This document shows, piece by piece, positions 20,806-39,425 of a stretch of 64,000 nt of DNA. The position numbers and the translations under genes were made by a program. The notes under the pieces are model-generated. The model saw only the letters and a program-made list of their open reading frames with translations. It searched no databases and was not told the DNA's origin. Within the stretch, counting starts at the first letter, position 1, and every line of letters begins with the position of its first letter. The stretch covers positions 864,001 to 928,000 of the forward strand of contig OY761556.1 in NCBI GenBank assembly GCA_963664705.1. Direction: 5' to 3'. Source of the stretch: Acidobacteriota bacterium (GTDB lineage Bacteria > Acidobacteriota > UBA6911).

Positions 20806-20905
20806 AGTCCAGCTTCCGGTTTGAAGTAAAATCCGCTCTGCGAAGCTCGAACTTGAGAGCGCAGATTCCAAATAATTGCCTGCCCTTTTTGTGGAGGTTC
20901 ATTCC

Positions 20906-22294: not shown

Positions 22295-22444
22295 GGCATT
22301 CTAGGGATTGAAAGGGGCGGCGCGGATTATCTGGCATTCAGGGACGGCAGGCATGTGAAGCAACGATCACGACGCGATTTCTGCGATCGGTTTTATTGAC
22401 GCTCCGGACAACGCAGGATACGTCCCGCCAAAAGGGGAATTGAA

Positions 22445-24736
22445 ATGGCTGATATCGTGGATGAAGAAACAGGGGTAGAGATCAGGAAGACAATCTGCTG
22501 GCCGTCTCCGGGCTGTCATTGCAATTGCGGCCTGCTGGTACGCGTCAAAGACAACAAGATACTAAGCATCCGGGGGAATCCTGACTTCCCATACAATCGC
22601 GGGTCTGTCTGCGCCGAGCGCATGCCTCACTTCCGCAAATGGCTCGATCATCCCGATCAGCTGCAGCATCCGCTCAAACGCAAAGGAGAGCGCGGCGAAA
22701 ATCTGTGGGAGAGAATTTCCTGGGAGCAGGCGCTGGACGAGATCTCCGCAAAACTGCTGGCTCTCAAGGCCGAGCACGGCGCCGAGTGTCTGTCCACGAT
22801 CGAGGGGACCTATCGCTCCGATTTCTACGCTATCCGGGCACGATTCCTGAATCTGTTTGGCAACCCGGCCAACGTGGGGGCTTCCGGGACAGCCTGCGCA
22901 TGCAACAAGGTCGCGCTGTCCTTCGCATTGGCCGGAACCAATATTCCCTGCATCCTGGCGCCTCCCATCAAGCATTTGAACTGCCTGGTACTGCTGGGTC
23001 GGGATTATACATTTTCAAATCCGATCCGGCGGCGCCCGATGCAGAAATGGCGTGCGCAGAATTCCGGCGCCAAGCTGATCGTCATAGATCCGCGGCAGAC
23101 AGAGATGGCCAAAATGGCCGATATCTGGTTGCAGCTACGCCCTGGGACGGACACAGCCCTGCTCATGGGCTGGATCCATGTGATTATTTCGCGCCAGCTT
23201 TACGACCGAGCCTTCGTCGAACAATGGACCTATGGTTTTGAGCAGCTCAAACAGCGCGCAGCGGAGTATACGCCGGAACGCGTTGCCGAGATCACATGGA
23301 TCCCGGCCGATCAGATCATCGCTTCCGCAATCGCCTATGCCGGCAATAAACCCGGATGTATCACCAGCGGACTGGCGCCCGATCAGCTGGGCCTCAACGC
23401 CACGCGCGTGGAGCAGGCCAAGCTTTGTCTGCATGCCATTACCGGGAACATGCGTGGTGATGCGCCCGGGCTCGCGCCCGAAGGTCCGGGCCCCGTTGTC
23501 AATGGCACCATGGCCCTGCGCGATTCCATGATGCAAATGGCGGAGTTGTGCCCGCCGGAACAACGAGCCAAACAGCTGGGCAGCGATCGGTTCAAGTTGA
23601 TGACCTGGCCTGCGTATGAGCGTATGAACGCAATGTATGAGCAGACGTATGGCGTGCCTATATCCATGAGCGGCCACAGCTTTACTGCCCCGGAACCGGC
23701 CATCTGGCGCAGTATTGTGGATGGCGTCCCCTATCCTACGAAAGCTCTCATCACCTGGGGCAGTAATCCTCTGCTCAATGCAGCCAATACCAGGATGGTA
23801 TACAGAGCTTTGAAGAGCCCCAACCTTGATCTGCATGTAGTTTTGGAACACTTCATGACTCCGACGGCCCTGCTGGCGGATTATGTCCTTCCCGCAGCCA
23901 GCAAACTGGAGCGCGGGACGTTGTCCACGATGGAGGATTTCACCTCCGTTTTCGTCGCGGCCGAGCGTGCCATCCCGCCTATCGGCGAGCGCAAATCGGA
24001 TTATTATTTTTTCCGCGAGCTCGCTATCCGGATGGGTTTTGGCGAGCACTTTCCGTGGGAAACCGACGAGGATCTCTATAACTATCGCCTTCAGCCCTTG
24101 GGGATTACCTTCGAAGAGGCAGCCACGAAAAGGTATGTTATCGCCAGTTCTGAATCCTGGACATACGACAAGATTAATCCGCGAACTGGAAAGATAACGG
24201 GTTTCGCTACGCGCAGCGGCAAGTTCGAGCTCTATTCGAATATCCTCGAGGAACTGGGATATGATCCGCTTCCTTATTATGAAGAACCTCCCGAGAGCCC
24301 GATACGAACTCCGGAAATTGCGGCCGAATACCCGCTCATATTGATCAATGGCGGGCGATTTCTTCCGCAGTTTCAATCCGAGCATCGACAGTTCGGTATG
24401 GGGCTGCGCGAACAACACCCCGATCCGCTTCTGCAGATTCATCCGGAAACAGCAGCCCGGCTGGATCTTCGAGAAGGAGACTGGGCGCGAATTGAATCAC
24501 CCAGAGGCGCCATTATCATGAAAACGCAGCTTACTCCGGGCATCGATCCGCGTGTTGTGCATGCAGAGCATTGCTGGTGGTTTCCTGAACAGCCGGGAGA
24601 AGAGCCGTCTTTGCATGGTCTGTGGCAGTCGAATGTAAATGTATTGACCACCGATGAACTGGATACGTGCGACCAGGTTACCGGAAGCTGGCCGGGCAGA
24701 GCCTTGTTGTGTCGAGTGAGCCGGGTCAGCGTCTAG
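22445..24736 (+). CDS. Cytoplasmic bis-MGD molybdo/tungstoenzyme, acetylene hydratase/catechol dehydroxylase-like clade
   Basis: CWPSPGCHCNC..C Fe-S motif, RISWEQALD, IDPR, RPGTD, TPTA..ADYVLP and C-terminal molydopterin-dinucleotide domain. No Tat signal. Confidence 0.88.
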   Translation: MADIVDEETGVEIRKTICWPSPGCHCNCGLLVRVKDNKILSIRGNPDFPYNRGSVCAERMPHFRKWLDHPDQLQHPLKRKGERGENLWERISWEQALDEISAKLLALKAEHGAECLSTIEGTYRSDFYAIRARFLNLFGNPANVGASGTACACNKVALSFALAGTNIPCILAPPIKHLNCLVLLGRDYTFSNPIRRRPMQKWRAQNSGAKLIVIDPRQTEMAKMADIWLQLRPGTDTALLMGWIHVIISRQLYDRAFVEQWTYGFEQLKQRAAEYTPERVAEITWIPADQIIASAIAYAGNKPGCITSGLAPDQLGLNATRVEQAKLCLHAITGNMRGDAPGLAPEGPGPVVNGTMALRDSMMQMAELCPPEQRAKQLGSDRFKLMTWPAYERMNAMYEQTYGVPISMSGHSFTAPEPAIWRSIVDGVPYPTKALITWGSNPLLNAANTRMVYRALKSPNLDLHVVLEHFMTPTALLADYVLPAASKLERGTLSTMEDFTSVFVAAERAIPPIGERKSDYYFFRELAIRMGFGEHFPWETDEDLYNYRLQPLGITFEEAATKRYVIASSESWTYDKINPRTGKITGFATRSGKFELYSNILEELGYDPLPYYEEPPESPIRTPEIAAEYPLILINGGRFLPQFQSEHRQFGMGLREQHPDPLLQIHPETAARLDLREGDWARIESPRGAIIMKTQLTPGIDPRVVHAEHCWWFPEQPGEEPSLHGLWQSNVNVLTTDELDTCDQVTGSWPGRALLCRVSRVSV

Positions 24737-24803: not shown

Positions 24804-25913
24804 CTAAAAGCCGAGATTGTGGGTCATCAGCAGATCTGCGCATAGTGCATTCAGATTTTTCTGAACGCTGGGGGGGATGCGGATCCCTTCCACCATCGCC
24901 TTTTTCATGCATTCGTACGCCTTTTCTCCCGCGGTATATATTCTGGCGTTGGGGCCGGCATCCGGAGTTCTTTCGTATGCCCTCAATTCCCTCAGAATGC
25001 TTCCGGTCGTATGTTTGAAATTTTCCACCGGGAGGAAATTCGCAATATTGATTGCCATGAAGAAATGGCCGATGCGGGAGGGTTGTTGCTTCCCGTCCTT
25101 ATCGTGATCGTGGAGTTGAGAGAGATAGCACCCATCCTGGAAGGCTGAGGAAAGAATCTCCACTATCGTTGCCAGCCCATATCCTTTATGCCCGCCCATC
25201 AGTTCCCCTTTTCCTCCGAGGGGAAGAAGCGCGGCCTTTCCCCTGTTCATTTGCTCGATCAGCCTGGAGCTGTCGGTTGCGGGCGATCCGTCTTCTTTGA
25301 TCACCCATCCTTCGGGAATTGGTTTTTTGGCGCGGGCGGCAATTTCAATTTTGCCGCGTGGAGCAATCGATGTGGCAGCATCGAATGTAAATGGAAACTC
25401 CTCATCGGTCGGAGCGCTGAATGCGATTGGGTTAGTACCCAACATGGGTTCGACGCCGAAGGTCGGGGCGATGGAAGGATGGGCGTTGGTAAAGCTCATC
25501 CCGACCATGCCTTCGTTGGCCGCCATCCGGGAATAGTAGCCGGCGATTCCGTAGTGGCTCGAATTTCGAACGGCAACTGCCCCCATGCCATATTTGTGGG
25601 CTTTTTCGATGGCCAGTTTCATTGCATTGAACCCGACAACCATTCCCATCCCATTGGCTCCGTCAACAACGGCGGTAGTGAGAGATTCATTTACGATTTT
25701 CCAATGGGTTGTCGGCTGCTGCAGTCCTGACTTGATGCGCTTGTAATACCAGTGAAGATGGGCGATCCCGTGAGAGCGAACGCCCTTCAGGTCGGAGGCG
25801 AGAAGGACATCTGCCGCAATTTCGGCATCGGGGCGGGGAAGCCCCATGCGAGTCATTGCCTCAATCATAAACTCGGTCAGCTTCTTAACGGGTACATAGA
25901 CGGCTTCTGCCAT
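24804..25913 (-). CDS. Ldh_2 family (malate/lactate/sulfolactate/ureidoglycolate) dehydrogenase
   Basis: GVRSHG, RNSSHYG, GTNPI and GGHKGYGL motifs. GGAG RBS before ATG 25913. Confidence 0.92.
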   Translation of the reverse strand: MAEAVYVPVKKLTEFMIEAMTRMGLPRPDAEIAADVLLASDLKGVRSHGIAHLHWYYKRIKSGLQQPTTHWKIVNESLTTAVVDGANGMGMVVGFNAMKLAIEKAHKYGMGAVAVRNSSHYGIAGYYSRMAANEGMVGMSFTNAHPSIAPTFGVEPMLGTNPIAFSAPTDEEFPFTFDAATSIAPRGKIEIAARAKKPIPEGWVIKEDGSPATDSSRLIEQMNRGKAALLPLGGKGELMGGHKGYGLATIVEILSSAFQDGCYLSQLHDHDKDGKQQPSRIGHFFMAINIANFLPVENFKHTTGSILRELRAYERTPDAGPNARIYTAGEKAYECMKKAMVEGIRIPPSVQKNLNALCADLLMTHNLGF

Positions 25914-26010
25914 GGCTGTCTCTCCATTGTTCAAGCCGGATTCCGAGATGGGGGGCAGGGTATTCCGCGCGGAATCCTTCAGTCCGTGTTCAGCATTCAC
26001 ACTCCATTTA

Positions 26011-27393
26011 CTAATCTTGGAACATTTTTCCCGGATTTAGAATATTCAATGGATCCAGCGCCTGTTTGATTTGCCGTTGAACTCCGACAGAAACCGGACC
26101 CAACGCCTGTTCGAAATATGGGCGCTTGAGAACTCCGACACCGTGTTCTCCGGACAGTGTTCCGCCCTGGGCGAGCGCAACTGCGAAGATCTCCTTTACC
26201 ATCTTCTCCACCTTTGCCCACTCTTCCGGCTTGCGCTTATCAAAGAGAATATTGGGATGCAGGTTCCCGTCTCCCGCGTGGCCGAAGATGACGATGGGAA
26301 GCCCGTATCGGGCGCTGATCTCGCGCAGTCGCTGCACGACTTCCGGAATGGCGCTGCGCGGAACTGTGATATCTTCACCCAGCTTATTGGGAGCCTTGCG
26401 GGCGAGCGACGGGGAAATGGAACGTCGGGCCTTCCACAAGCCGGCGCGCTCAGCTTCAGTTTTGGCAACCTTTACCGACCGGGCTCCATTGTCTGTACAG
26501 ATCTCTCCTGCCGCCTCGATTTCACGGATGACCGTCTGCTCATCCGAGCCATCCGTTTCGATAATCAGAGTGGCTTCAACATCGGTCGGCAATCCCAGGT
26601 GCATCGCCTCCTCTATGCAGGATATGGCTGTCTGGTCCATCAGTTCAAGGCTTGCCGGCACTATACCCGCCGCAATGATTGCATTGACGGCCTTGGACGC
26701 ATTTGCGAGAGAGCTGAATTCGCCCAGGGCGGTCTTGGCATATCGGGGCTTGGCGACCAGACGGAGGAGCGCTTCAGTGATGAGCCCAAGAGTCCCTTCG
26801 GATGCCGTAAACAGGGCATTCAGATTATAGCCGGTTACATCTTTGATCGGTTTACCCCCGGTTTTCAGAACACTGCCATTGGCCAGCACCACGGTCAGTC
26901 CCAATACGTAATTGCCTGTGACTCCATACTTCAGACAGCGAGCCCCACCTGCATTGCAGGCAATGTTGCCGCCGATGGTGGAATGGCGGATGCTGGATGG
27001 ATCCGGAGGATAAAAGAATCCCAGTTTTTCGACTTCTGCCTGCAGGTCGGATGTGACCACGCCAGCCTGGGCGCGGATCGTGGAATTGCCGGCATCGATT
27101 TCCAGAATCCTGTTCATTCGTGTGAAGCTGACAATGATGCCGCCGGCGCGAATCGGGATTGAGCCTGCAGCCAGTCCGGACCCCATGCCGCGCGCGATCA
27201 GCGAGGTGCGGGTTTCCGCTGCCAGCTTGACTACTTCCGCTGCCTGTTCCGTCGATTGCGGCAGCACGACCACGTCGGGCAGCCCTTCGGCAAAGGTTCC
27301 ATCATAGCTATACACGGCCAGGTCTTCCGGCGTGCACAGCACGCCATCCTTGCCGGCAATTCCCACCAAACGCTCGATAATTTTACTTTCCAT
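26011..27393 (-). CDS. GlcD-like FAD-linked 2-hydroxyacid oxidoreductase
   Basis: YPPDPSS, TIGGN, LKYGVT, GHAGDGNLH and SGEHG motifs. Confidence 0.93.
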   Translation of the reverse strand: MESKIIERLVGIAGKDGVLCTPEDLAVYSYDGTFAEGLPDVVVLPQSTEQAAEVVKLAAETRTSLIARGMGSGLAAGSIPIRAGGIIVSFTRMNRILEIDAGNSTIRAQAGVVTSDLQAEVEKLGFFYPPDPSSIRHSTIGGNIACNAGGARCLKYGVTGNYVLGLTVVLANGSVLKTGGKPIKDVTGYNLNALFTASEGTLGLITEALLRLVAKPRYAKTALGEFSSLANASKAVNAIIAAGIVPASLELMDQTAISCIEEAMHLGLPTDVEATLIIETDGSDEQTVIREIEAAGEICTDNGARSVKVAKTEAERAGLWKARRSISPSLARKAPNKLGEDITVPRSAIPEVVQRLREISARYGLPIVIFGHAGDGNLHPNILFDKRKPEEWAKVEKMVKEIFAVALAQGGTLSGEHGVGVLKRPYFEQALGPVSVGVQRQIKQALDPLNILNPGKMFQD

Positions 27394-28654
27394 CCGCACC
27401 CCCGTACGCTTCGTCCAATAAAGTAACCGGGTGTACGACGCGAACCGGCAAGCCGCGCCGCTGCAGTCCCGTGTTGAGCTGCATCTGGCAGCCCGGGCAA
27501 CCGGAGGCAAGAACACGTGCCTCCGTTCCTGCGATATTATCCAGTTTCCTGTTCAGAACTTTCCATGAAGTTTCATAGTGCGTGATCAATTGACTTCCCG
27601 CAGATCCACAGCACCAGTCGGCTTCCGGCATCTCGACAAATTGCAGGCCGTCGATCAGGGACAACAGCTTTCTGGGTTGCTGCCACACTTTCTGGCCCCT
27701 TCGCAAATGACAGGGATCATGGTAGGTGACCTTTGTCTCGAGCCGCCCGGAAGGTTTCTCCAGCGGTATTTCCGAAAGAAATTCGCTGATATCCCGCACC
27801 TTGGATTCAAAGGCTTTTGCCCGGCTTGCCCAATCCGGATCGCCCGAAAGCAGAACGCCATATTCCTTCAGGCTGGATCCACACGTTGCGCAATCTGTAA
27901 CAATCTTGTCCACGTGATAGCGTTCAAAAACAGCGATATTATGCCGGGCCTGTTTTTCCACAAGATCCATGCGGCCATAGCCTCGTGCCGGCATGCCGCA
28001 GCATTCAATCTCCTTCGGGGAAATGACGGTGCAGCCGTTTCGGGCCAGGACACGCAGCGTAGCTGCGCTCTGGTCGGCGAATAATAGACTCTGGGCGCAT
28101 CCGAGAAAGAAACCGATGCGATACCGTTCTTCGCCCCTGGCTTTGGTTACCTCCGGCAGGATGCGCCGCAAAGGGCGCTGCGGGAGCCTCGGGAGCATGG
28201 CTTCGAGATCACGAAGTTTCCCGGGCAGAAGCTTGTTCAGCCCGAGCATGTATACCAGGCGGCGCAGCCCAAGTTTTTCGTAAAGCCGAAGAGGCCAGGT
28301 TGCCATTTCCATCCGACCCGCGTGGGAAACCAGTCCTCCAAAAAGCCACTGTTTCCATTTGGCAGGGCGGATCTGTTCCTGGACGTGACGCATGGAAAGC
28401 GCCAGATCGGCGGGACGAATTCCCACGGGACAGAGATCATTGCAGGCCATGCAATCGAAACAGCCGTACATCTGCTCGATAAGGTTGGGGCTGAGTTCCA
28501 GCTGTCCTTCGAGCCCTTTCCGTGCCAGGGCAACGCGACCGCGCGGAGAGGCTGTTTCCTTTAAATACTCCCGATAGGTCGGACAAACAGCCAGACATAA
28601 CCCGCAGCGAATGCAATTGTGATACGCAGATTCGTCAGGTTTAACCAGGTTCAA
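27383..28654 (-). CDS. GlcF-like Fe-S subunit
   Basis: Two CxxCxxCxxxCP motifs, two CCG domains and YHDPCH. TTG start after GAGGT. Confidence 0.92.
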   Translation of the reverse strand: MNLVKPDESAYHNCIRCGLCLAVCPTYREYLKETASPRGRVALARKGLEGQLELSPNLIEQMYGCFDCMACNDLCPVGIRPADLALSMRHVQEQIRPAKWKQWLFGGLVSHAGRMEMATWPLRLYEKLGLRRLVYMLGLNKLLPGKLRDLEAMLPRLPQRPLRRILPEVTKARGEERYRIGFFLGCAQSLLFADQSAATLRVLARNGCTVISPKEIECCGMPARGYGRMDLVEKQARHNIAVFERYHVDKIVTDCATCGSSLKEYGVLLSGDPDWASRAKAFESKVRDISEFLSEIPLEKPSGRLETKVTYHDPCHLRRGQKVWQQPRKLLSLIDGLQFVEMPEADWCCGSAGSQLITHYETSWKVLNRKLDNIAGTEARVLASGCPGCQMQLNTGLQRRGLPVRVVHPVTLLDEAYGGADGK

Positions 28655-28704
28655 GGCAATTACCTCATTTAGCGTTGCGGGCTCAATGCTCGCTCGGCCG
28701 GTAT

Positions 28705-29991
28705 TTATTTTGTCACGACCGGAAGCGTCAGAAGCGAATGCGGCACAATCAACACATCGCACGACAAGCCCCTGTCGCGGGCCGCAATCTGAATGGCTTC
28801 GTCCATTGTAGCCGCGGGGATCATTTTACACGCGGCCACAACTTCGGGACACTCACTGCCAACGATGATAATTTTCGTCTGTTCAAGCACCTTGGCAATG
28901 ACGAAAGCGCGCTGCTGGCCGGGAGGGAATCCGTTGGTTCGTCCGTCCTGCAGGATCGATTGAACGTCGGGCATGTCGCGCATTGCCGAAAGGAACCGTT
29001 GCTCGCCGACGCCGCTTCCGGCCCCTTCCTCACAGCGCGCGGGGACGATAAAATATCCACCCGGGCGAAGGACGCAGGTCGGTGCAAAGAAGAGGTAGGA
29101 TGGCGCCCGGCTTGCCTGGTACAGATTGCTGTCCTTTGGAAAACCGACACCGGCAATTGCAATATCGTATTGCCCGGGAATCGGAACTTCATAAACCGAG
29201 CGCGCGAAAGCGACAAGATCCTGGAACGCCTGTTCCGGATGGCCCGCGGCCACCCGCAGCACGCGCTTGTCGTCGTCGAGTACCACATTCAGAATGAATC
29301 GGAGTCCCTCGCGCTGCGCAGCCTCCGTAATGGCTTCATGGAATGGGTTCCCCTCAATCTGTCCAAGCCGTGTTCCCGGATGATCGACAAAGGCGGGGCC
29401 GTGCGAATAGGCAATCAGAGCTTCTCCGGCAGCCCCGACAGCAAGCGTTTTCCTGCCTCCGGAATAGCCGGCATATTGATGCGGTTCGACGATTCCGGTC
29501 GCGATGACAAGGTCCGATTCGACGACGGCACGATGTGCGGAAACGGGAACTCCGCCCTCCGTGGTACCAAGGTCGACCAGGGCGGACGGGTTTTGCGGTT
29601 CATTGTCAATGACGCGATAGCGGGCGACAACCGCCGCTCCCAGTTTGGATATCTTCTCCTCCCGGGTGGAGGCGCGATGCATGCCGATGCCGCAAAGCAA
29701 GGTGATGTTTTCATCTTTGACGCCGGCATCCTGCAGTTCGGACAGGATGGGCGGCACCAGAAGACTGTCGGGGCAGGAACGGGTAATATCCGTGAAAACA
29801 ATGCATACTCGACTATCGGCGTGGGCCAATTTTCTTAGAGGCTGGGATCCGATTGGATGCGCCAGTGCGTCCAGTACGGCTTTTTCCTCATTTGCAACAG
29901 GAGGAACGGGTCTGGATACGGCCTGACTGACGCGCATTTCCGAAGGAAGCGAGAACTCCATCGTCGTTTTTCCATACGGCACCTTGTACAT
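28705..29991 (-). CDS. larA: LarA-family nickel-pincer 2-hydroxyacid racemase/epimerase
   Basis: VPYG, DITR, GMHR, EPH..AGYSGGRK and H200-equivalent AYSH. Substrate not established. Confidence 0.88.
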   Translation of the reverse strand: MYKVPYGKTTMEFSLPSEMRVSQAVSRPVPPVANEEKAVLDALAHPIGSQPLRKLAHADSRVCIVFTDITRSCPDSLLVPPILSELQDAGVKDENITLLCGIGMHRASTREEKISKLGAAVVARYRVIDNEPQNPSALVDLGTTEGGVPVSAHRAVVESDLVIATGIVEPHQYAGYSGGRKTLAVGAAGEALIAYSHGPAFVDHPGTRLGQIEGNPFHEAITEAAQREGLRFILNVVLDDDKRVLRVAAGHPEQAFQDLVAFARSVYEVPIPGQYDIAIAGVGFPKDSNLYQASRAPSYLFFAPTCVLRPGGYFIVPARCEEGAGSGVGEQRFLSAMRDMPDVQSILQDGRTNGFPPGQQRAFVIAKVLEQTKIIIVGSECPEVVAACKMIPAATMDEAIQIAARDRGLSCDVLIVPHSLLTLPVVTK

Positions 29992-30028
29992 TTTTCGCCC
30001 CCTCTACTTTTTATATTCGCGTCCTGAT

Positions 30029-30065
30029 GTTTCGCAATGCGAAACCTTGTTCCATAAGGCAGAAT
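30029..30065. promoter_or_regulatory. Two tandem candidate IclR operators, 20 bp apart start-to-start
   Basis: GTTTCG-CAATG-CGAAAC (30029-30045) and GTTCCA-TAAGG-CAGAAT (30049-30065), upstream of larA. Confidence 0.7.
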
Positions 30066-30165
30066 ATTCCTTGGTATTCCTTTTGTCAAAAGAATTGGAC
30101 CCAGTAATAATTGTGTAATTGTGGACACCCACCATCGGAGCCAATTGCGGATTATTCTTAAACCT

Positions 30166-30214
30166 GTTCCGGCATACGAAAATGATTGACACAGGGTGGA
30201 ATTTGATCTATAAA
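30166..30214 (+). promoter_or_regulatory. Operator plus sigma70 promoter
   Basis: GTTCCG-GCATA-CGAAAA (30166-30182), TTGACA (30186-30191), 17 bp spacer, TATAAA (30209-30214). Confidence 0.78.
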
Positions 30215-30288
30215 AGCGCTTTATTTGACGCAGTAAAGTCTCAGGGCGAGTATATCGATCGGATGCCCTGCCAAAACAAAGGAGGATT

Positions 30289-31383
30289 ATGAAGGAAGGG
30301 AATATCAGTTATCAGGAGCTATCATCTTATACGCAGCAGGTCCTCGAAAAGCTGGGCTATCCGAAGGAGCAGGCAGAGGTAACCGCATGGACCCTCGTCG
30401 AAGCGGATGCGCGCGGTGTTCCTTCTCACGGGGTAGGTCGGCTTCCTTTCTATGAATCCAATATCAAGTCAAAGTTCGTCTTTCCGGAGGCGAAGCTGGA
30501 AGTTGTGCATGAGACTCCGTTGTCTCTGACCGTGGATGGGCACAATGGCATTGGACCGTATCTTGCCAAGTATACGATGAACCAGGCGATTGAGAAGGCG
30601 AAGAAAGTCGGAGCGGGTTTTGGCGCCCTGCGGAATTCGAGCCATTTCGGAATGGCGGCATTGTGGGCTGAAATGGCCACCAATGAGGGTTTCATCGGCA
30701 TGTCTTTTACCAACACAAGAATCTGTTCGGTTGTTACCTACGGGAAGGAACGCATTCTGGGAACAAACCCGATCTGCTTTGCGATCCCTTCTGCCGGAAA
30801 AGTACCGTTTATTCTGGATATGGCGACCACCACAACGGCGCATGGCAAAGTAGAAGTGTATGAACGCCGCAACAAGCCGATGCCTTTGGGTTGGGTCGTA
30901 GATGAAAATGGAAATGACACGAGCGATACGATTGAATTCCAGAAGCTGTATCGCAGCACGAACCCGAATGGCGGCCATTTGTTCCTCGGCGGTGCCGGGG
31001 AAGAGTTGGGCGGACACAAGGGTTATGGTCTTGGACTTTTCGTAGATCTTCTCTGCGCCGGTATGTCCATGGGTGCGTGGAGCAAAGAGACCTTCAGCAA
31101 AACCAATGGCTGCTGCGTGGCCAGCTTCTTCGCCGCGATCCGCACCGATCTTTTTGGGAATGCAAAGGACATTGCCGACCATGTCGAATCGATTCTGGAA
31201 GGCGTCCGCACCAGCAACAAGGCAGCAGGGCATGACAGGATTTACGTCCATGGCGAAAAGGAAATTGAAAAGCGCGCGGAATCCATGGTCGACGGAGTAA
31301 GCTTGGAGGATACCGAATGGAAGATGCTTGCCGGCTATGCCGAGAGATTCGGCTTTAAGAAGCTGGAGCCATGCAAGGCTTAG
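30289..31383 (+). CDS. Second Ldh_2 family dehydrogenase
   Basis: GVPSHG, RNSSHFG, GTNPI, DMAT and GGHKGYGL motifs. AAGGAGG RBS. Confidence 0.92.
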   Translation: MKEGNISYQELSSYTQQVLEKLGYPKEQAEVTAWTLVEADARGVPSHGVGRLPFYESNIKSKFVFPEAKLEVVHETPLSLTVDGHNGIGPYLAKYTMNQAIEKAKKVGAGFGALRNSSHFGMAALWAEMATNEGFIGMSFTNTRICSVVTYGKERILGTNPICFAIPSAGKVPFILDMATTTTAHGKVEVYERRNKPMPLGWVVDENGNDTSDTIEFQKLYRSTNPNGGHLFLGGAGEELGGHKGYGLGLFVDLLCAGMSMGAWSKETFSKTNGCCVASFFAAIRTDLFGNAKDIADHVESILEGVRTSNKAAGHDRIYVHGEKEIEKRAESMVDGVSLEDTEWKMLAGYAERFGFKKLEPCKA

Positions 31384-31423
31384 GAAAAGGTATCCGCTAA
31401 GTTTCATCTGGTGTTAGGTTTCA

Positions 31424-31467
31424 GGCAGCCGCCAAGAAGTTGATTCTCAGCGGCTGCCCCTTTTTTT
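31424..31467 (+). terminator. Rho-independent terminator
   Basis: ggcagccgc/gcggctgcc stem followed by T7. Confidence 0.75.
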
Positions 31468-31478
31468 GCAAAAAAATT

Positions 31479-31552
31479 GTTCCGAAGTACGAAATTCGTT
31501 GACACGTCGTGGAATTGCACCTACAATGGAACGCGATTCCGCATAATGGAAC
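31479..31552 (+). promoter_or_regulatory. Sigma70 promoter flanked by two operators
   Basis: GTTCCG-AAGTA-CGAAAT (31479-31495), TTGACA (31499-31504), 17 bp spacer, TACAAT (31522-31527), ATTCCG-CATAA-TGGAAC (31536-31552). Confidence 0.8.
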
Positions 31553-31576
31553 AGAACATTGGAGGATTTATTAACT

Positions 31577-31951
31577 ATGGAAAACAAGCCGCAAGTATTG
31601 CCATTTAAAGCAGCCGCTGACGTGCAGGGAGAATTCAGAACGCCTCCGCGCACATCCAAGCTCTTACTAGCTCCCAAGTTCGGGGGCGTTAAGAACGTAT
31701 CGATGGGTATGAATATCACAGAAGTCGGAAGCCAGATCCCCGACCACGTCCATGATGAATCCGAGGAAGTTCTGTTCCTGATCAGCGGGAAGGCGCGGAT
31801 TGTGATTGAAGGGGTAGGATCCTGGGAAATCGGACCGGAAACCGCCTTCTACTCACCGCTTGGTGTAAAGCACAGAGTAGAAAACATCGGTGACGAGCCG
31901 CTTCGAATAGTCTGGTGCTATTGTCCACCTTTGCCGTCTCATTGCAGTTAA
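31577..31951 (+). CDS. Cupin domain protein
   Basis: PDHVH...EE..F.ISG and P.GVKH..EN.G metal-binding motifs. GGAGG RBS. Confidence 0.9.
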   Translation: MENKPQVLPFKAAADVQGEFRTPPRTSKLLLAPKFGGVKNVSMGMNITEVGSQIPDHVHDESEEVLFLISGKARIVIEGVGSWEIGPETAFYSPLGVKHRVENIGDEPLRIVWCYCPPLPSHCS

Positions 31952-31981
31952 TTTCCATATTTTTTTAAGGAGATTTTAGTC

Positions 31982-32902
31982 ATGATTTTCGATGCAACAC
32001 GTAAGGCCATGAAAAAGCTCGGGCTGCCGGAAGGCGATGCCTTCGATATGCCCTCTTCAACCAAGAGATTTCCTGATGGCGCAGCATTCCGTATTGAATG
32101 CCCGACCGTCAATTCCTCGGAAACGGTTGCCGCCCTTCTGGACACCGCCGACAAAACCGGCGTTACCATCAACCGTATCACTGAAACCTACGGGATGTTC
32201 CGCCACACCGCAACGGAAATCAAAGAATACTGCAAGCTGTGCCACGATTATGGCTGCGAACTGCTGCTTTCCACCGGCCCCCGCGCAACATATGACACGG
32301 GCGCAACGGTTCTCTCTTCGCAGGGTGTTCGCGTAGGCTATCGTCTCCGTGGTCAGGAACAGCTGATCCGCGCCATCGAAGACATCAAGCGCGGCTATGA
32401 GCTCGGCTGCCGTGGCTTCCTGGTTTATGATGAAGGCATGCTGTGGGTTGCCAACGAAATGCGCAAAAACGGCGACCTCCCGAAGGACATCGTATTCAAG
32501 TGCTCCGCTCACCTTGGCCATTGCAACCCGGCGTCCATGAAGCTCCTGAAGGACCTCGGCGCAGACAGCATCAACCCGATCCGCGATCTGCAGATCCCGA
32601 TGCACTCTGCCATCCGCCAGGCCATCGGCGACACGCCACTTGACATCCACATGGACAACCCTCCGGGATCCGGCGGATTCATCCGCGTGTTTGAAGCCCC
32701 CGAGATCGTCCGCGTAGCCGCTCCGCTGCACTGCAAAACCGGTAACTCCGTTATCGGCGGCCACGGCGAAATGACTGGCGCTTCCGAAGGAAAGAAAATG
32801 GCCAACCAGGCCACCATCGTTGTTGAAATGATCACCCGGTACGCTCCAGAGCTCAAACAGTCCGGCAAGCGAGCCAAGGATATGTGTATTCCTGTTGTGT
32901 AA
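31982..32902 (+). CDS. U32-peptidase-like TIM-barrel protein of unknown function
   Basis: RFPDGA.FRIE.P, GPRA.YD.G, G.RGFLV.DEG, LGADSINP and GGF.R motifs. AAGGAG RBS. Confidence 0.75.
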   Translation: MIFDATRKAMKKLGLPEGDAFDMPSSTKRFPDGAAFRIECPTVNSSETVAALLDTADKTGVTINRITETYGMFRHTATEIKEYCKLCHDYGCELLLSTGPRATYDTGATVLSSQGVRVGYRLRGQEQLIRAIEDIKRGYELGCRGFLVYDEGMLWVANEMRKNGDLPKDIVFKCSAHLGHCNPASMKLLKDLGADSINPIRDLQIPMHSAIRQAIGDTPLDIHMDNPPGSGGFIRVFEAPEIVRVAAPLHCKTGNSVIGGHGEMTGASEGKKMANQATIVVEMITRYAPELKQSGKRAKDMCIPVV

Positions 32903-32951
32903 GACTGAACCTTGTTCCGCGGACGTCAGTTCCGCAGATTAGGAGGATGTC

Positions 32952-33935
32952 ATGGGTAGTAAATGGGGAGAATGGGGTAAGTGGGAATTGCCGTCGAAAG
33001 GCGGCCACATGGAGACCCCCGGAGTATATCTCCAGACCATGAACATGACGCAGATCAACGACCGTCTCAAGACAAACGATCTGATCATTGTCCCGATCGG
33101 AAGCACGGAATGTCATGGGGCGGCTCAGCCTATCGGCGAAGACACCTTCCTCGTCACGCGCATGGCCGAACAGGTCGCCGCGAAGATGGGGTGCACGATC
33201 GCAATGCCGGTCTGGTACGGATCTCATCCGTTCAACCATCTTGGCATGCCGGGCACGGTTGTCGTTCCCGAGGACGCATTTCTGGCAAACCTGCGAGCCA
33301 TTATTGCCGGCTTGTGGAATATGGGCTTCAGAAAGCAGATTTTTCTGAACGGCCATGGCCAGGAGGAAGTCATTCCACTCGCACTCCATCAGTGGGCGAA
33401 GAAGTACCAGGTTCCATCAGTTCTGGTTTCGCTGCACTGGGAGACAGTCATTCATGACCATCTCAGAACCAAAGAGTTCGGCGGACCTTTCGAGACGCAG
33501 TTCTCACATGCGGACGAAGCGGAAGCTTCTTACTCGCTGGCGCTTTTCCCTGAGTTCTGCGACATGAAGCTGGCTGTGGACAACAAACCCTCTGGATTCA
33601 TTCCCAAGGGGCACGTGGACGGTGGCGGCGAAGTGTATCATCGACCCATCCGCGGCCACGAGCATGTTGGCCTGAGTGGTACGGAAGTGAATGTTTATCC
33701 GGAAGGCGTTATCGGACATCCGACGCTTGCCAGTGCGGATAAGGCCTATGCAGGTCTTAACGAGCTGTTGGATTATATGTGCAAGCTGATCACCGATATC
33801 ATGACCGCCTTCCCGGCCGGTAAATTGCCTCCGGCTGAAAAGACTACTCAGCGCGATCCGAAGGAAATTGAAGCGCTCCTGAAGGGCCCGCTGAATGGTG
33901 GAAAGCATCTCTATACGATCGCTTATCCCCCATAG
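32952..33935 (+). CDS. iolN: Creatininase-family hydrolase resembling IolN (3-dehydro-scyllo-inosose hydrolase)
   Basis: GSTECHG..GEDT, NGHGQE, HADEAE, YPEGV.G and FPAGKLPPAE match Thermotoga IolN as I recall it. Confidence 0.8.
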   Translation: MGSKWGEWGKWELPSKGGHMETPGVYLQTMNMTQINDRLKTNDLIIVPIGSTECHGAAQPIGEDTFLVTRMAEQVAAKMGCTIAMPVWYGSHPFNHLGMPGTVVVPEDAFLANLRAIIAGLWNMGFRKQIFLNGHGQEEVIPLALHQWAKKYQVPSVLVSLHWETVIHDHLRTKEFGGPFETQFSHADEAEASYSLALFPEFCDMKLAVDNKPSGFIPKGHVDGGGEVYHRPIRGHEHVGLSGTEVNVYPEGVIGHPTLASADKAYAGLNELLDYMCKLITDIMTAFPAGKLPPAEKTTQRDPKEIEALLKGPLNGGKHLYTIAYPP

Positions 33936-33996
33936 GCTTTTGCGCAGTTGTTGTAAAGGGGGCGCCGTTTGCCCCCTGCTTTTCTGATAAGGATGG

Positions 33997-34043
33997 CCTG
34001 GGGGTTGCGGCGATTTTTCCGGCAGCCCCCAGGGAGTTTTTTT
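33997..34043 (+). terminator. Rho-independent terminator; a second weaker hairpin lies at about 33957-33984
   Basis: cctgggggttgc / gcagcccccagg stem followed by T7. Confidence 0.7.
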
Positions 34044-34107
34044 AGCAGCGTGTCATCATAAAAAGCAGAGCGTCTTTAGGATACCAAGATCTCAAAGGAG
34101 GTTTGAT

Positions 34108-34899
34108 TTGTCCCAGTCTGTACGCTCCGTTGAAAGAGCTCTGGATATTCTGCTCTGCTTTACACGCGAAGAACCTACTCGTTCTCTGACCCAGATTGCC
34201 GAGTCGGTCCACATGTCCAAAACCACTGTGCACCGGCTCCTGACCACGCTCGAGAACAAGCGCTTTATTACCAGAGACAAAGTTACAGGTCTATACCGGC
34301 TCGGCTTCTGCTTTATCGAAATGGCCTCGCTGGTTCTTCAGGATGTCGAGCTGCATCGTTGGGCTCAGCCATACCTGAAGCGCCTTTCTTCTGATTTTGG
34401 AGAAACGGTGGATCTCTCTATCCTGGAGGGATCCCATGTGATCTACCTCGAGGTCATTGAGAGTCCCCAAAGGGTCAAATTGGCTGCAGCGGTCGGACAG
34501 CGGCTGCCGGCTTTTTTTACAGCATCCGGAAAAGCCCTGCTCGCCTTTCTTCCCGGGGAACAAGTTCGAAAAATCATCAACGAAAACCTGGCCGAATCCT
34601 CTAATCACGCATCAATGGCCTTAGAGGACGTGATGGCGGATTTGAAAGCTACTTCAGAACGTGGCTATGCCATTTCTGAGCAGGAATACGAAGAGGCTAT
34701 CAACGCCGTCGCTGCCCCGATTTTTGACGCCGACAAGCATCCCATTGCGTCGATAGCGATTGTCGGCCCATCCTATCGGCTTACCAAGGAACGTCTGCCT
34801 TTACTCGGAGAAGCGCTTTGCAATATGACTCGCGCAATTTCGAGCGAAGTAGGGATGGTTGCCCTCTCCGCAATCGTCAACAAGACTCGCCCCCGATGA
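34108..34899 (+). CDS. IclR family transcriptional regulator
   Basis: SVERALDIL, KTTVHRLL.TL, TASGKALLA, RGYA and AAPIF motifs. TTG start with AAGGAGG RBS. Confidence 0.95.
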   Translation: MSQSVRSVERALDILLCFTREEPTRSLTQIAESVHMSKTTVHRLLTTLENKRFITRDKVTGLYRLGFCFIEMASLVLQDVELHRWAQPYLKRLSSDFGETVDLSILEGSHVIYLEVIESPQRVKLAAAVGQRLPAFFTASGKALLAFLPGEQVRKIINENLAESSNHASMALEDVMADLKATSERGYAISEQEYEEAINAVAAPIFDADKHPIASIAIVGPSYRLTKERLPLLGEALCNMTRAISSEVGMVALSAIVNKTRPR

Positions 34900-34962: not shown

Positions 34963-36591
34963 TCAATCCATTCCATAAGTGATTTTTGTTTCTGAACCGC
35001 GGATAGCAATGTTCGCGAACTGGGCCCTGAGCCGATAAATCCTGCTTCCGTGGATCTGCGCTTCTGGAACATACATCTCGTTGATCAGACTCTGGAATAT
35101 AGGATATTTATCGATCGTCGCGACCTTCTGCACGTCCGCAATCAGCAGCGGTTTGGTCGCGCGAATAAACTCTGCCGTCCGGAACTGGTTTGCCGGATCG
35201 CCTGCGTGTGGAGGATAGTCGTCGGCTATATCATAATCCATCCATCCGGTTACCGTCTGTCTTTGGGCAAGGAATAGGAGCTGCGGCTTCGACCCCCAGA
35301 TGAATATCTTATCTCCAGGCGAAGATGTCGACCTGATGTAGGCGGCGATTTCCCGGTTGCTCTTTTCTTCGTGCCCCATCTCCCAGAGTTTTATCTGGTG
35401 CAGTTTGGGGAACGGAAGCGCCAGCCAGTTTATGAGGGTTCGTGAGTGGAACCAGACGACTGAGATCAGAAATGCGGTGCCGCAAATCTTAAGAGGCCTT
35501 CGCAGGCTTTGTTGGTTTCTGTGCTGCCACAGGTAGTTCAATCCCAGTCCCCCGAGGAGGGACAAAGGGGGCATCCATTGCAGAAAGTAGTTCGCATAAT
35601 AGCGTCTTCCAGCAACAACTCCAGCGAAAGCAGCGATGCTCCAGCAAATCAGGAACAGATAGGCCCTGGAGTTTTCGCCCCGTGACTTCCGGCTCATCCA
35701 CATCAGGATGACAAGCCATGCAAAGATAAGTCCGAAGGCGATCGTCACGCGAATTGATTTGCCGAAAAAGGAGGCGATGTTGATTCTGCCGACATACCGG
35801 AAAGCATAAAGAATGGCCTGATCCCACCATGCCATCAAAATTCCCGTGTGGAAGAGCCATCCTGTGAACAATGCCAGGCAGGAAAACACTCCGGAAACAA
35901 GGACGAAAGCAGAATAAAGAGTTTCCTTAACCGAGCGCTCATTGCCAAAAAAGAGAAATATGGCCAGCAGCGCCGCTTCAGGCGCCGACACCGGTTTTGT
36001 CAGAAATGCGCAACAGGCGAAAAATCCCGCTGCAAAAAAGGCCGGTCTGCGGCCGTGAATCAGGGCATGAAGGTAGAACAATACGGCAAGGGAGGTAAAA
36101 ACCACCATCAGGGTTTCGGTGTTCATTCCGATAATTCGTGGGATGTAGTATGTCGTGCTGGCGAAGGCATGAATGATGGCGGCCGCGGCTCCCGCGCCCC
36201 GGGAGAAAAACTTTGCTCCCAATAGATACAGCAGGATAGAGGTCATCCACACCAGCAGGAGGGCTCCGATGTGAATAGCCGTCATACTGGGTCCGAATAT
36301 CTTGAAGAGAAATGCGCAGAACCAGAAGATCGGCGGATTCTTGTCCAGCGCGATATCGAGATAAAGCCGGCCTCCCTGATGCAGGACATTCGCGCCATTG
36401 GCCCAGTGGGCCTCATCCACGAAAATGAAGTCGTACTGAAAATACGGAAGCCTTAGGAATGCCGAGATGAAGACACTAAGAACGACCAGTAGAAGGTATT
36501 TGTGCCTTTCGGCCCAACTCAACAACTGACGAGACACTTCTTCCAAAGCAAGCTCCACTGCATGGACTGGTTTCGATTTGCGCTCCTGCAA
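34963..36591 (-). CDS. GT-C glycosyltransferase (ArnT/PMT-like)
   Basis: DE in the first loop, LY....DKNPP motif and many TM helices. Start codon uncertain. Confidence 0.85.
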   Translation of the reverse strand: MQERKSKPVHAVELALEEVSRQLLSWAERHKYLLLVVLSVFISAFLRLPYFQYDFIFVDEAHWANGANVLHQGGRLYLDIALDKNPPIFWFCAFLFKIFGPSMTAIHIGALLLVWMTSILLYLLGAKFFSRGAGAAAAIIHAFASTTYYIPRIIGMNTETLMVVFTSLAVLFYLHALIHGRRPAFFAAGFFACCAFLTKPVSAPEAALLAIFLFFGNERSVKETLYSAFVLVSGVFSCLALFTGWLFHTGILMAWWDQAILYAFRYVGRINIASFFGKSIRVTIAFGLIFAWLVILMWMSRKSRGENSRAYLFLICWSIAAFAGVVAGRRYYANYFLQWMPPLSLLGGLGLNYLWQHRNQQSLRRPLKICGTAFLISVVWFHSRTLINWLALPFPKLHQIKLWEMGHEEKSNREIAAYIRSTSSPGDKIFIWGSKPQLLFLAQRQTVTGWMDYDIADDYPPHAGDPANQFRTAEFIRATKPLLIADVQKVATIDKYPIFQSLINEMYVPEAQIHGSRIYRLRAQFANIAIRGSETKITYGMD

Positions 36592-36650
36592 CCCGTTGAC
36601 TGAATCGTGATCATCCTACGATATTTTTAGTTGTAAAAGCGAGCGGCATT

Positions 36651-38027: not shown

Positions 38028-38080
38028 AAAACCGTTCTCCGAGGATGGATGTGCGTCCGGGAAACCGCGCCTGCCTTGAA

Positions 38081-39310: not shown

Positions 39311-39425
39311 AAATAGGTCCTGTTGGTGGCGGTTGTTGAAATTGTTCGTCCATCAAGATAGTGGATTTCTGAGCCGGAGTCATGTACAAGATATAAAAAG
39401 CAGTTTTTTTATTGCCGGGTGTTCC

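Follow-up and report, generated by a model that had tools for sequence, protein, structure and literature searches.

A 64,000-nucleotide stretch of an Acidobacteriota genome (contig OY761556.1, positions 864,001 to 928,000; hereafter, the window) carries, at window positions 24804 to 34899, a block of catabolic genes built around a small cupin, a TIM-barrel protein related to the peptidase U32 family, and an IolN-like metal hydrolase. The gene set is real, conserved and, as far as the literature was searched, undescribed, and the evidence supports a catabolic unit, both conserved and co-regulated, other than the Thermotoga inositol pathway. The chemistry proposed for it is an oxygen-independent pathway in which the hydrolase opens a 2-hydroxy-cyclohexane-1,3-dione and the end products are pyruvate and oxaloacetate, a serious possibility that falls short of probable. 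In a literature search with most subscription journals outside its scope, neither the cluster nor a U32-like aldolase nor a shikimate dehydrogenase of the MDR type was found described. The genome of the window (G000) consists of one 6.9-Mb contig (C1) and is 98% complete; L-numbers (e.g., L013) are labels of single compared loci.

The conserved gene core and its operators

Three genes on the plus strand form the core. The first encodes a small cupin (31577..31951; PF07883, Cupin_2; likely start 31577) with an HxHxxxE...H metal motif that aligns to OxdC. It is a putative ketol-aldehyde isomerase, and no named family was found for it among the function-level models. The second encodes a cysteine-free U32-superfamily TIM barrel (31982..32902), recognized by its structural model and by hhalign and predicted to be a pyruvate aldolase or hydratase-aldolase. 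The third encodes a creatininase-fold hydrolase of the IolN clade (32952..33935), predicted to carry out retro-Claisen cleavage of a 2-hydroxy-cyclohexane-1,3-dione.

When the U32-like protein was used as the query, 41 genome loci were retrieved, of which 34 belong to Acidobacteriota, to Chloroflexota or to a single Omnitrophota bin; in these, the cupin-U32-hydrolase string is present or is cut off inside it. Since a search that starts from the U32-like protein is biased, it was repeated from the hydrolase, and 80 metagenome loci were found with the IolN alignment alone. Among the 39 that fall in the clade of the window's hydrolase (described below), the U32-like gene occurs in 33, the cupin in 29, an aldehyde:ferredoxin oxidoreductase (AOR) gene in 23 and IolO in none. 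For the 41 non-clade loci, the corresponding numbers are 0, 0, 1 and 27, and the single AOR locus is a partial IolN row omitted from the tree. Six clade loci are without the U32-like gene, and four of them begin less than 300 bases from a contig end. Acidobacteriota and Anaerolineae both conserve a core of cupin, U32-like and IolN-like genes, which AOR usually accompanies. An earlier note on this DNA had staked its candidate pathway on conservation of the gene combination in other taxa, and loci of uncultured Acidobacteriota and Chloroflexota do carry the core.

Partner genes are more variable. In the 31 well-flanked clade loci, many of which came from the U32 query and some of which are near-duplicates, the U32-like gene is present in all 31, the cupin in 30, AOR in 26, Ldh_2 in 23, MDR in 18, GlcDF in 18, LarA in 16, family I CoA-transferase in 13 and nitroreductase in 8. 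LarA and GlcDF, which the earlier note had counted among the parts of the pathway, do recur in conserved loci, but as an optional module rather than as core. Its picture of a co-regulated unit likewise stands, but was incomplete, as the window does not show the partners that set the order of steps, namely AOR, the MDR, the flavin reductases and the CoA-transferases. A split fumarase/TtdAB with malic enzyme is found in 5/31 loci, none of which holds larA or glcDF. OYE genes occur in L013, L102 and L103. Transporters in clade loci are branched-chain-type ABC systems and AEC acid carriers, and searches with the solute-binding protein, the MDR and the cupin named no ligand.

Within the genus, the hydrolase was found at an identity of at least 81% in 20 of 24 relatives, and an AOR orthologue and the MDR in 16 of 24 each; at that level, none of the three was found in the 16 same-class genomes. 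In the window's genome, a satellite (C1:423103-427354; L191) holds a CaiB-type CoA-transferase, a nitroreductase, its 183-aa partner, for which no family match was found in relatives, and the cluster MDR.

Co-regulation is indicated by a 17-bp palindrome with the consensus GTTCCRY-N3-RYGGAAC, for which a matrix was trained solely on upstream DNA of relatives (61 sites from 27 loci). As the earlier note had proposed, both divergent units share operators: five sites above 12 bits lie in the 490 bp of two intergenic regions, compared to a mean of 0.016 sites per set in 1000 dinucleotide shuffles, none of which had five. Two palindromes (30029-30045, 21.2 bits; 30049-30065, 15.7 bits) are situated at and behind the larA promoter predicted from the sequence (30089-30061, minus strand), and the one at 30029 has the highest score anywhere in the 6.9-Mb genome. 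Another (30166-30182, 12.1 bits) lies just 5′ of a TTGACA-17-TATAAA sequence ahead of ldh2b (element 30166..30214, plus strand). The remaining two (31479-31495, 13.9 bits; 31536-31552, 19.9 bits) lie either side of the near-consensus promoter of the cupin unit (31499-31527, plus strand), with TTGACA at 31499 and a -10 that ends at 31527. Together with this promoter, a hairpin (31424-31458) sets ldh2b and the cupin unit apart.

Since the operators flank three promoter-like elements, the arrangement is that expected of a repressor, and we infer that the palindromes are bound by the adjacent IclR-family regulator (34108..34899, plus strand; PF09339 and PF01614), a putative repressor found with 71–81% identity and at the same position in Acidobacteriota loci. 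Because the matrix was trained on loci homologous to the window, the operator result speaks of conservation rather than binding. AOR genes have operator-like sites in 6 of 36 scored loci, namely Acidobacteriota loci with AOR as a separate unit. The satellite nitroreductase has an upstream site (C1:424403, 18.3 bits), a weak case as only 2 of 14 related nitroreductase genes exceed 12 bits. No common theme was found among the remaining top genome-wide matches. A uxaE-larA-kdgK operon was considered for the regulon because of a 19.7-bit site 69 bases upstream in G000. No such site was found in 20 scorable relatives (best score 5.3; one locus unscorable), and the operon was therefore excluded as a chance match. 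This locus (C1:4222026-4227313; L190) encodes uxaE-like and kdgK-like proteins and a LarA that exceeds the cut-off of a "putative hexonate epimerase" model (656.6 vs 500).

The IolN-clade hydrolase and the U32-like barrel

The hydrolase is the sole protein of the block above a function-level cut-off, that of the IolN model NF041098 (494.6 bits vs 245). An oxidative inositol pathway of Thermotoga maritima, consisting of IolG, IolM, IolN and IolO, was reportedly described by Rodionova et al. in 2013; the T. maritima operon and its metabolites are covered in the available text of PMC5931981, and the reaction taken here for IolN, hydrolysis of 3-dehydro-scyllo-inosose, follows that text and the name of the model. 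In a quick tree of 119 rows, which omits the partial IolN rows L002, L010, L012, L014, L100 and L118 and four duplicate loci, and which does not include T. maritima IolN itself, the window's hydrolase belongs to a clade of 70 rows (SH-aLRT 99) nested among IolN proteins encoded beside IolM, IolG, IolO and UxaE. Identity to these inositol-context members is 57–62%, compared to an E of only about 1e-11 for creatininase.

The creatininase-type metal ligands E53, H55, D64, H135 and E189 are kept in all 69 clade rows, and His186 is invariant in the clade. The clade departs from the inositol-context members at positions 95, 139, 162, 185, 235 and 236, with pocket changes that include I/V185 to Q/S/R, W/F235 to G, and Y/W236 to H, and all six positions probably act in substrate binding. 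Invariant ligands in a changed pocket point to the same chemistry on another substrate. The simplest reading is that the hydrolase would carry out an IolN-type retro-Claisen cleavage of a 2-hydroxy-1,3-dione, derived from another ring, to an acid with a CO-CH2OH end.

The earlier note had remarked on the absence of IolG, IolM and IolO beside the IolN-like gene, and none exceeds its cut-off in the entire genome either: the best IolG and IolM scores are 123.7 vs 355 and 211 vs 450, and IolO has no match in the 98%-complete single contig. This disposes of a full Iol pathway elsewhere in the genome as the explanation for iolN. In the 69 clade loci, IolO is found in none and IolM in two. These are L013, where the cluster IolM is over its cut-off (539.8 vs 450), and L094; both operons contain the IolM orthologue plus a Gfo/Idh/MocA gene, and the genome of L013 holds a separate IolO locus as well.

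Both systems employ an IolN-family metal hydrolase with the same ligands and have adjoining MDR dehydrogenases, and two basal loci share an IolM orthologue with the Thermotoga pathway. Unlike that pathway, the clusters described here have a separate hydrolase clade with an altered pocket and an IclR regulator, and in place of IolO, UxaE and KdgK they contain the cupin, AOR, Ldh_2, LarA, GlcDF and the U32-like protein. The database name IolN therefore spans at least two pathways. A long form of IolN with an N-terminal extension, 36–40% identical to the window's hydrolase, occurs in L047 and L051–L057 within full IolM/IolG/IolO/UxaE clusters; where scored, it reaches 301–325 bits on the IolN model, compared to 475–527 bits for the non-inositol clade.

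The U32-like protein, whose nearest relatives are from Acidobacteriota, is harder to place by sequence. It has no Pfam or NCBIfam match (E 0.01), and a PF01136 search of its own genome did not list the gene, which fell below the gathering score. Against the canonical U32 protein of the same genome, it aligns over residues 131–226 (hhalign 96.8%, E 2.7e-10). This homology spans strands 4–7 and ends before the cysteine-bearing region. Its Atlas clusters are named U32 at 0.97–0.98. An AF2 model from a 96-row alignment is a TIM barrel with a pLDDT of 95.7; a single-sequence fold reached only 42. Fold searches gave tied TIM-barrel matches (Z 14–16) to CutC, RuBisCO-like proteins, aldolases, and the U32 protein Mk0906 (Z 14.7, rmsd 2.7, 185 aligned), and protein and profile searches of PDB sequences gave nothing usable.

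In the available text of PMC6747719, the U32 family is characterized by a four-cysteine 4Fe-4S motif, UbiU, UbiV and RlhA are 4Fe-4S hydroxylases, and a cysteine-free group, PepU32#5, is named. The protein described here shares with that family a homologous β4–β7 core and a TIM-barrel fold. It differs in lacking the four-cysteine motif (no Cys column exceeds 46/94 in the 96-row alignment), in falling under the Pfam cut-off, and in its catabolic contexts and new conserved Lys173. With the cysteines missing, the hydroxylase role set out in that text is not applicable, and a protease or Fe-S hydroxylase was rejected. The earlier note's view of the barrel as a metabolic enzyme rather than a protease is thus upheld; it is probably a C-C lyase. 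The conserved residues are E39, R101, D105, R123, D150, K173, S175, N198, D221, R235 and K252, of which Lys173 (kept in 90/95) and Lys252 (80/90) are on strands 5 and 8; a pyruvate aldolase would be expected to have either a Schiff-base lysine or a metal site on the C-terminal side of the barrel.

Genomic context points to a particular lyase. In L046, IolN, the cupin, AOR, two MDRs and Ldh_2 are kept, and the U32-like gene is replaced by a 168-aa ORF of the RraA/CHA-aldolase family (best model NF006731, 151.6 vs a cut-off of 179). Outside the clade, an enolase-superfamily dehydratase gene shares the operon with the U32-like gene in 5 of 20 fetched loci; three of these dehydratases are galactonate-dehydratase-like, one is cycloisomerase-like, and one was unscanned. 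Among the other outside loci, the U32-like gene adjoins an IlvD gene in one and a KdgK-like gene in another, seven related loci combine U32-like, SDR and esterase-like genes, and six more are uninformative. A Thermomicrobium roseum plasmid operon contains genes for IclR, a sugar ABC transporter, a dehydratase, an MBL hydrolase and the U32-like protein (WP_012642555.1), with no annotated aldolase. The stand-in in L046 and the sugar-acid dehydratase neighbors elsewhere suggest that the U32-like protein is likely a pyruvate aldolase, a reading by guilt of association in which several outside loci are kin.

The family has 5065 matches at E 0.001 or better and is labelled "peptidase", so that a function is here proposed for a large group under that label; if the proposal is true, a new cysteine-free, U32-derived aldolase family has thousands of members. 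Other contexts are also seen. The U32-like gene adjoins aminotransferases in L036 and L038. On the Enterobacter plasmid NZ_CP097174.1 (L043:8901-18969), it is part of a biosynthetic-looking operon with phosphotransferase, oxidoreductase, aminotransferase, iron-containing redox enzyme and MFS genes. Its neighbors in the Bathyarchaeia loci L040 and L041 include genes for succinyl-CoA synthetase-like proteins and for 2-oxoacid:ferredoxin oxidoreductase.

The proposed pathway and its rivals

The order of steps is probably ring hydrolysis, cupin isomerization, AOR oxidation, redox by LarA, GlcDF and Ldh_2, and aldol cleavage, with each core gene apparently used once. Taken together with quinate, shikimate or gallate as the substrate class, the proposal is a tentative one, plausible rather than probable. 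In the first step, ring C3 and C5 would be oxidized by MDR/IolM-type dehydrogenases to yield 3,5-didehydroquinate; alternatively, a flavin ene-reductase (OYE or nitroreductase) would yield dihydrogallate. The hydrolase would then open the ring to leave a CO-CH2OH chain end, as for IolN, which the cupin would isomerize to CHOH-CHO in a reversal of what IolB does, and AOR would oxidize the aldehyde to a 2-hydroxy polycarboxylate. The (S) form of this product would be oxidized by Ldh_2 and the (R) form by LarA plus GlcDF to give, in the quinate case, 4-carboxy-4-hydroxy-2-oxoadipate (CHA). Finally, the U32-like enzyme would split CHA into pyruvate and oxaloacetate, the latter being converted to malate by the second Ldh_2 and, in some loci, passed on via fumarase and malic enzyme. 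For shikimate or gallate, the entry point would be dihydrogallate formed by the flavin reductases; a desaturation and a hydration would have to follow, the latter of which could come from a Schiff-base hydratase-aldolase, for which NahE is a precedent. Retro-Michael cleavage to pyruvate and fumarate was ruled out by a rough energy estimate.

A pyruvate aldolase step requires CH2 at carbon 3 and OH on carbon 4, and quinate would fit exactly: oxidized at C3 and C5, it becomes a 2-hydroxy-1,3-dione, and the opened chain would end as CHA. A CHA route from quinate would also explain the second Ldh_2, the fumarase/malic-enzyme module, which points to a C4 dicarboxylate downstream, the CHA-aldolase stand-in of L046, and a basic residue in LarA. 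The larA gene (28705..29991, minus strand; PF09861 and PF21113) encodes a probable nickel-pincer nucleotide (NPN)-dependent 2-hydroxyacid racemase/epimerase, in which H105, H171, K181 and H197 correspond to H108, H174, K184 and H200 of LarA1, so that the NPN-binding and catalytic residues are all in place; LarB, LarC and LarE are present in the genome. At the specificity positions it has Q,Y,Q,R, and the QQR motif is found in 28 of 29 orthologue rows. According to the available text of PMC11770544, lactate racemases have F,F,W,E/Q at these positions, and malate racemases, which epimerize tartrate too, have H/Q and K, where K binds the second carboxylate. The protein thus resembles the malate racemases LarAH5/6/62 of that text in its NPN-binding and catalytic residues and in combining Q and a basic residue at positions W358/T359, which points to a C4 dicarboxylate-type product. 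It differs in having Arg for Lys, so that the LarAH5/6 motif itself is absent, and it is below all LarA subfamily cut-offs, including those of LarAH5 and LarAH6 (362 vs 500 and 316 vs 462 bits).

A link to shikimate metabolism gives modest further support. In the genus, which has aroK and aroC as well, AroB is found in 24 of 25 genomes and AroQ in 23 of 25, and an AroE domain was found in none of the 25, compared to 15 of 16 same-class genomes. In the window's genome, AroC is present, AroD was not found, and a profile of the relatives' AroD-AroE proteins gave weak NAD-fold matches only. A zinc MDR gene lies directly 5′ of aroQ in 15/15 loci (C1:3510981-3512435, corresponding to L187:5943-7436, and L173–L186), and aroK adjoins in 14; in the window's genome, the MDR gene itself is at C1:3511425-3512435. 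Its product is a candidate shikimate dehydrogenase without kinship to AroE and could fill this gap in the shikimate pathway. An MDR of the L013 cluster is a sister of the aroQ-linked MDR (40% identity, SH-like 94), and for the MDRs encoded between U32-like and IolN in L102 and L103, which are unresolved in the tree, it is the best G000 match (34–35%). This kinship modestly supports a hydroaromatic acid substrate.

Known routes offer partial parallels. In gallate and protocatechuate 4,5-cleavage, the aromatic ring is opened with O2 and the CHA aldolase LigK/GalC splits CHA into pyruvate and oxaloacetate. The predicted last intermediate and products are the same here, and a member of that aldolase family occurs in L046; the clusters differ in having no dioxygenase and, as predicted aldolase, a TIM barrel instead of an RraA fold. 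The phloroglucinol pathway of Clostridium scatologenes (comprising PGR, DPGC, TfD and TAL; available text of PMC10470551) likewise opens a cyclohexane-1,3-dione by an oxygen-free retro-Claisen reaction, after which come an oxidation and the cleavage of a further C-C bond. Its DPGC is of the "cyclase" family, so the cupin was rejected as a DPGC-type hydrolase, and its TAL is a beta-keto acid cleavage enzyme. Here, the hydrolase has a creatininase fold, an isomerase and AOR would rebuild the end of the chain, with a retro-aldol reaction predicted for the second cleavage. By its predicted oxygen-independent opening of a 1,3-dione, the system resembles both the phloroglucinol route and the inositol route of Thermotoga, but belongs to neither.

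Several observations weigh against the quinate reading and the roles assigned in it. No aroE, aroD or aroQ was recognized in any cluster locus, no AroE-type quinate dehydrogenase was found in G000, and the fumarase/malic-enzyme loci other than L102 (L015, L020, L021, L076 and L079) contain no ring dehydrogenase at all. The IolM and Gfo/Idh/MocA genes of L013 and L094 fit an inositol-like substrate equally well. A plain quinate route leaves no role for OYE, for the CoA-transferases (13/31) or for the nitroreductase and its partner. In addition, 3,5-didehydroquinate should dehydrate readily to gallate, and the shikimate link depends on three basal loci, an unstarred branch and an aroQ-linked MDR whose function is itself a prediction. 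The pathway in this genome may be incomplete or borrow a paralogue, since no AOR orthologue was found there (the best paralogues are 45% and 42% identical). With regard to the aldolase, the near-tie of CutC, RuBisCO-like proteins, Mk0906 and aldolases means that the fold search singles out no aldolase, an ORF separates the RraA gene from the hydrolase in L071, and the IlvD neighbor of one outside locus exceeds the cut-off for biosynthetic ilvD. L072 has a 2-oxoacid:ferredoxin oxidoreductase instead of the U32-like gene, and the loci in general are related, some being duplicates, so that the counts overstate their independence.

The strongest alternative keeps the order of steps and takes a neutral cyclitol as the substrate, which we consider unlikely. 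As the main rival on substrate, a deoxy-inositol of the quercitol type would yield 2-keto-3-deoxy-hexarate and then pyruvate plus tartronate semialdehyde; from inositol itself, a 5-keto-hexonate would arise and be cleaved into tartrate and glycolate, for LarA, GlcDF and TtdAB to handle. The nesting of the clade within inositol-context IolN, its passing of the IolN cut-off, and the IolM-containing operons of L013 and L094 argue for a cyclitol, as do the split hydratase, which scores on fumarase and TtdAB models alike, and the epimerization of tartrate by malate racemases (PMC11770544, available text). These points are set against the rarity of IolM and absence of IolO in clade loci, the lack of recognizable IolG, IolM and IolO in G000, the placement of IolO apart from the cluster in L013's genome, and transporters of the branched-chain and acid-carrier types. 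Moreover, no glycerate kinase or tartronate-semialdehyde reductase was recognized in conserved neighbors.

Entry of a polyphenol is improbable. Here, 1,2,3,5-tetrahydroxybenzene or pyrogallol would be reduced by the nitroreductase, OYE or MDR, aided by a Mo/W enzyme, and the chain would end either as 4-hydroxy-2-oxoadipate, giving pyruvate plus malonate semialdehyde, or as 2-oxoadipate, on which a ferredoxin oxidoreductase such as KorABG of L072 would act. The OYE (3 loci) and nitroreductase (11/69 loci) were not found together, and reduction followed by hydrolysis is the logic of the phloroglucinol route (available text of PMC10470551). The window, L005, L093 and L096 have Mo enzymes next to the cluster, but these are few loci and the Mo enzyme is nearest acetylene hydratase; the nitroreductase matches malonic semialdehyde reductase weakly (39 vs 152 bits), and the basic residue of LarA and the fumarase/malic-enzyme module indicate a C4 dicarboxylate product.

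Slightly more improbable still is a quinate route with aldol cleavage straight after ring opening, to oxaloacetate and hydroxyacetone, from which the cupin would form lactaldehyde, AOR lactate, and LarA plus GlcDF pyruvate. The genes and end products are identical, and lactate is a common substrate of LarA and GlcDF-type enzymes, but LarA has Q,Y,Q,R rather than the lactate-racemase residues, and the L046 stand-in is from a family that cleaves 4-hydroxy-2-oxo acids. Very unlikely is a hydrolase that has gone back to cleaving the C-N bond of a cyclic amide in a cluster that degrades a nitrogen heterocycle: the creatininase fold works on amides and the mix of Ldh_2, cupin, IclR and GlcDF recalls AllD/AllE/AllR, but weak matches to AllD, ureidoglycine aminohydrolase and AllR models are far under cut-off, the hydrolase lies inside IolN by identity, and no conserved nitrogen-handling gene was recognized among the neighbors.

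Anoxic soils and sediments are rich in plant-derived quinate, shikimate, gallate and other cyclitols. Fermenters that degrade hydroaromatic acids without aromatic intermediates have been known for decades, and no paper on the genes of such a route was found in a literature search that covered few subscription journals. In its fullest form, the proposal, an oxygen-free, non-aromatic quinate/shikimate route to CHA via ring hydrolysis, cupin and tungsten AOR, with both a U32-derived aldolase family and a zinc MDR shikimate dehydrogenase, must be called doubtful. The cluster nonetheless constitutes a short list of testable enzymes.

Other genes of the block and its surroundings

All nine ORFs of the two divergent units and iclR have the positions and strands given in the earlier note. 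The minus-strand unit downstream of larA consists of a glcF-like gene for an Fe-S/CCG subunit (27383..28654; PF02754 and Fer4; likely start 28654), a glcD-like gene for the FAD subunit of a D-2-hydroxyacid dehydrogenase (26011..27393; PF01565 and PF02913; likely start 27393; 72–88% identity in relatives), and ldh2a, encoding an Ldh_2-family NAD(P)-linked (S)-2-hydroxyacid dehydrogenase (24804..25913; PF02615, 385.6 bits). The likely start of ldh2a is at 25913, with a GGAG motif; the longest ORF begins at 26000. The second, optional Ldh_2 gene, ldh2b (30289..31383, plus strand; PF02615, 362.9 bits), is present in Acidobacteriota loci at 70–89% identity. Its nearest solved sequence is 1v9n, named malate dehydrogenase (E 2.5e-70), and a 65% paralogue is found at C1:5334144.

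LarA, GlcD, GlcF, both Ldh_2 proteins and IclR are below every function-level model scanned. For example, the GlcD-like protein scores 482 on the glycolate oxidase model TIGR00387 (cut-off 568) and the GlcF-like protein 188 on NF008434 (cut-off 333), and the absence of a glcE ORF between their genes speaks against a GlcDEF enzyme. The Ldh_2 proteins score 193 and 163 on AllD (ureidoglycolate dehydrogenase; 496) and 251 and 213 on ComC (L-sulfolactate dehydrogenase; 500). With ComC missed by both, tartrate and sulfolactate, which the earlier note had listed among the compounds to try in vitro, find no specific support.

Two genes at window positions 20876-24736 converge on the cluster. One encodes an FAD oxidoreductase (PF12831), the other a Mo/W-bisPGD enzyme with acetylene hydratase as its nearest match (E 3e-129), and each has about seven paralogues in the genome. 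They were rejected as core parts, as the FAD gene occurs in 0/41 loci and a close Mo orthologue in 1/41. Downstream (34963-40853) are a glycosyltransferase-like membrane protein, a GPH sugar symporter, an esterase and a GH1-like ORF, which are not conserved alongside the cluster.

Related genes occur elsewhere. L072:997-12852 has a clade hydrolase without U32-like or cupin genes, followed by KorABG, Ldh_2, succinyl-CoA:acetate CoA-transferase and mutase-like genes. At C1:856439-863667, immediately upstream of the window, tblastn and N-terminal sequence point to another larA-glcD-glcF unit, accompanied by genes that resemble those for a CoA-transferase and MetF. Finally, C1:5327143-5337763 is probably a separate 2-hydroxyacid reduction unit, in which two larA genes and the ldh2b paralogue (65%) are found with a CaiB-type gene and with ORFs named by eye as 2-hydroxyacyl-CoA dehydratase-like and activator-like.

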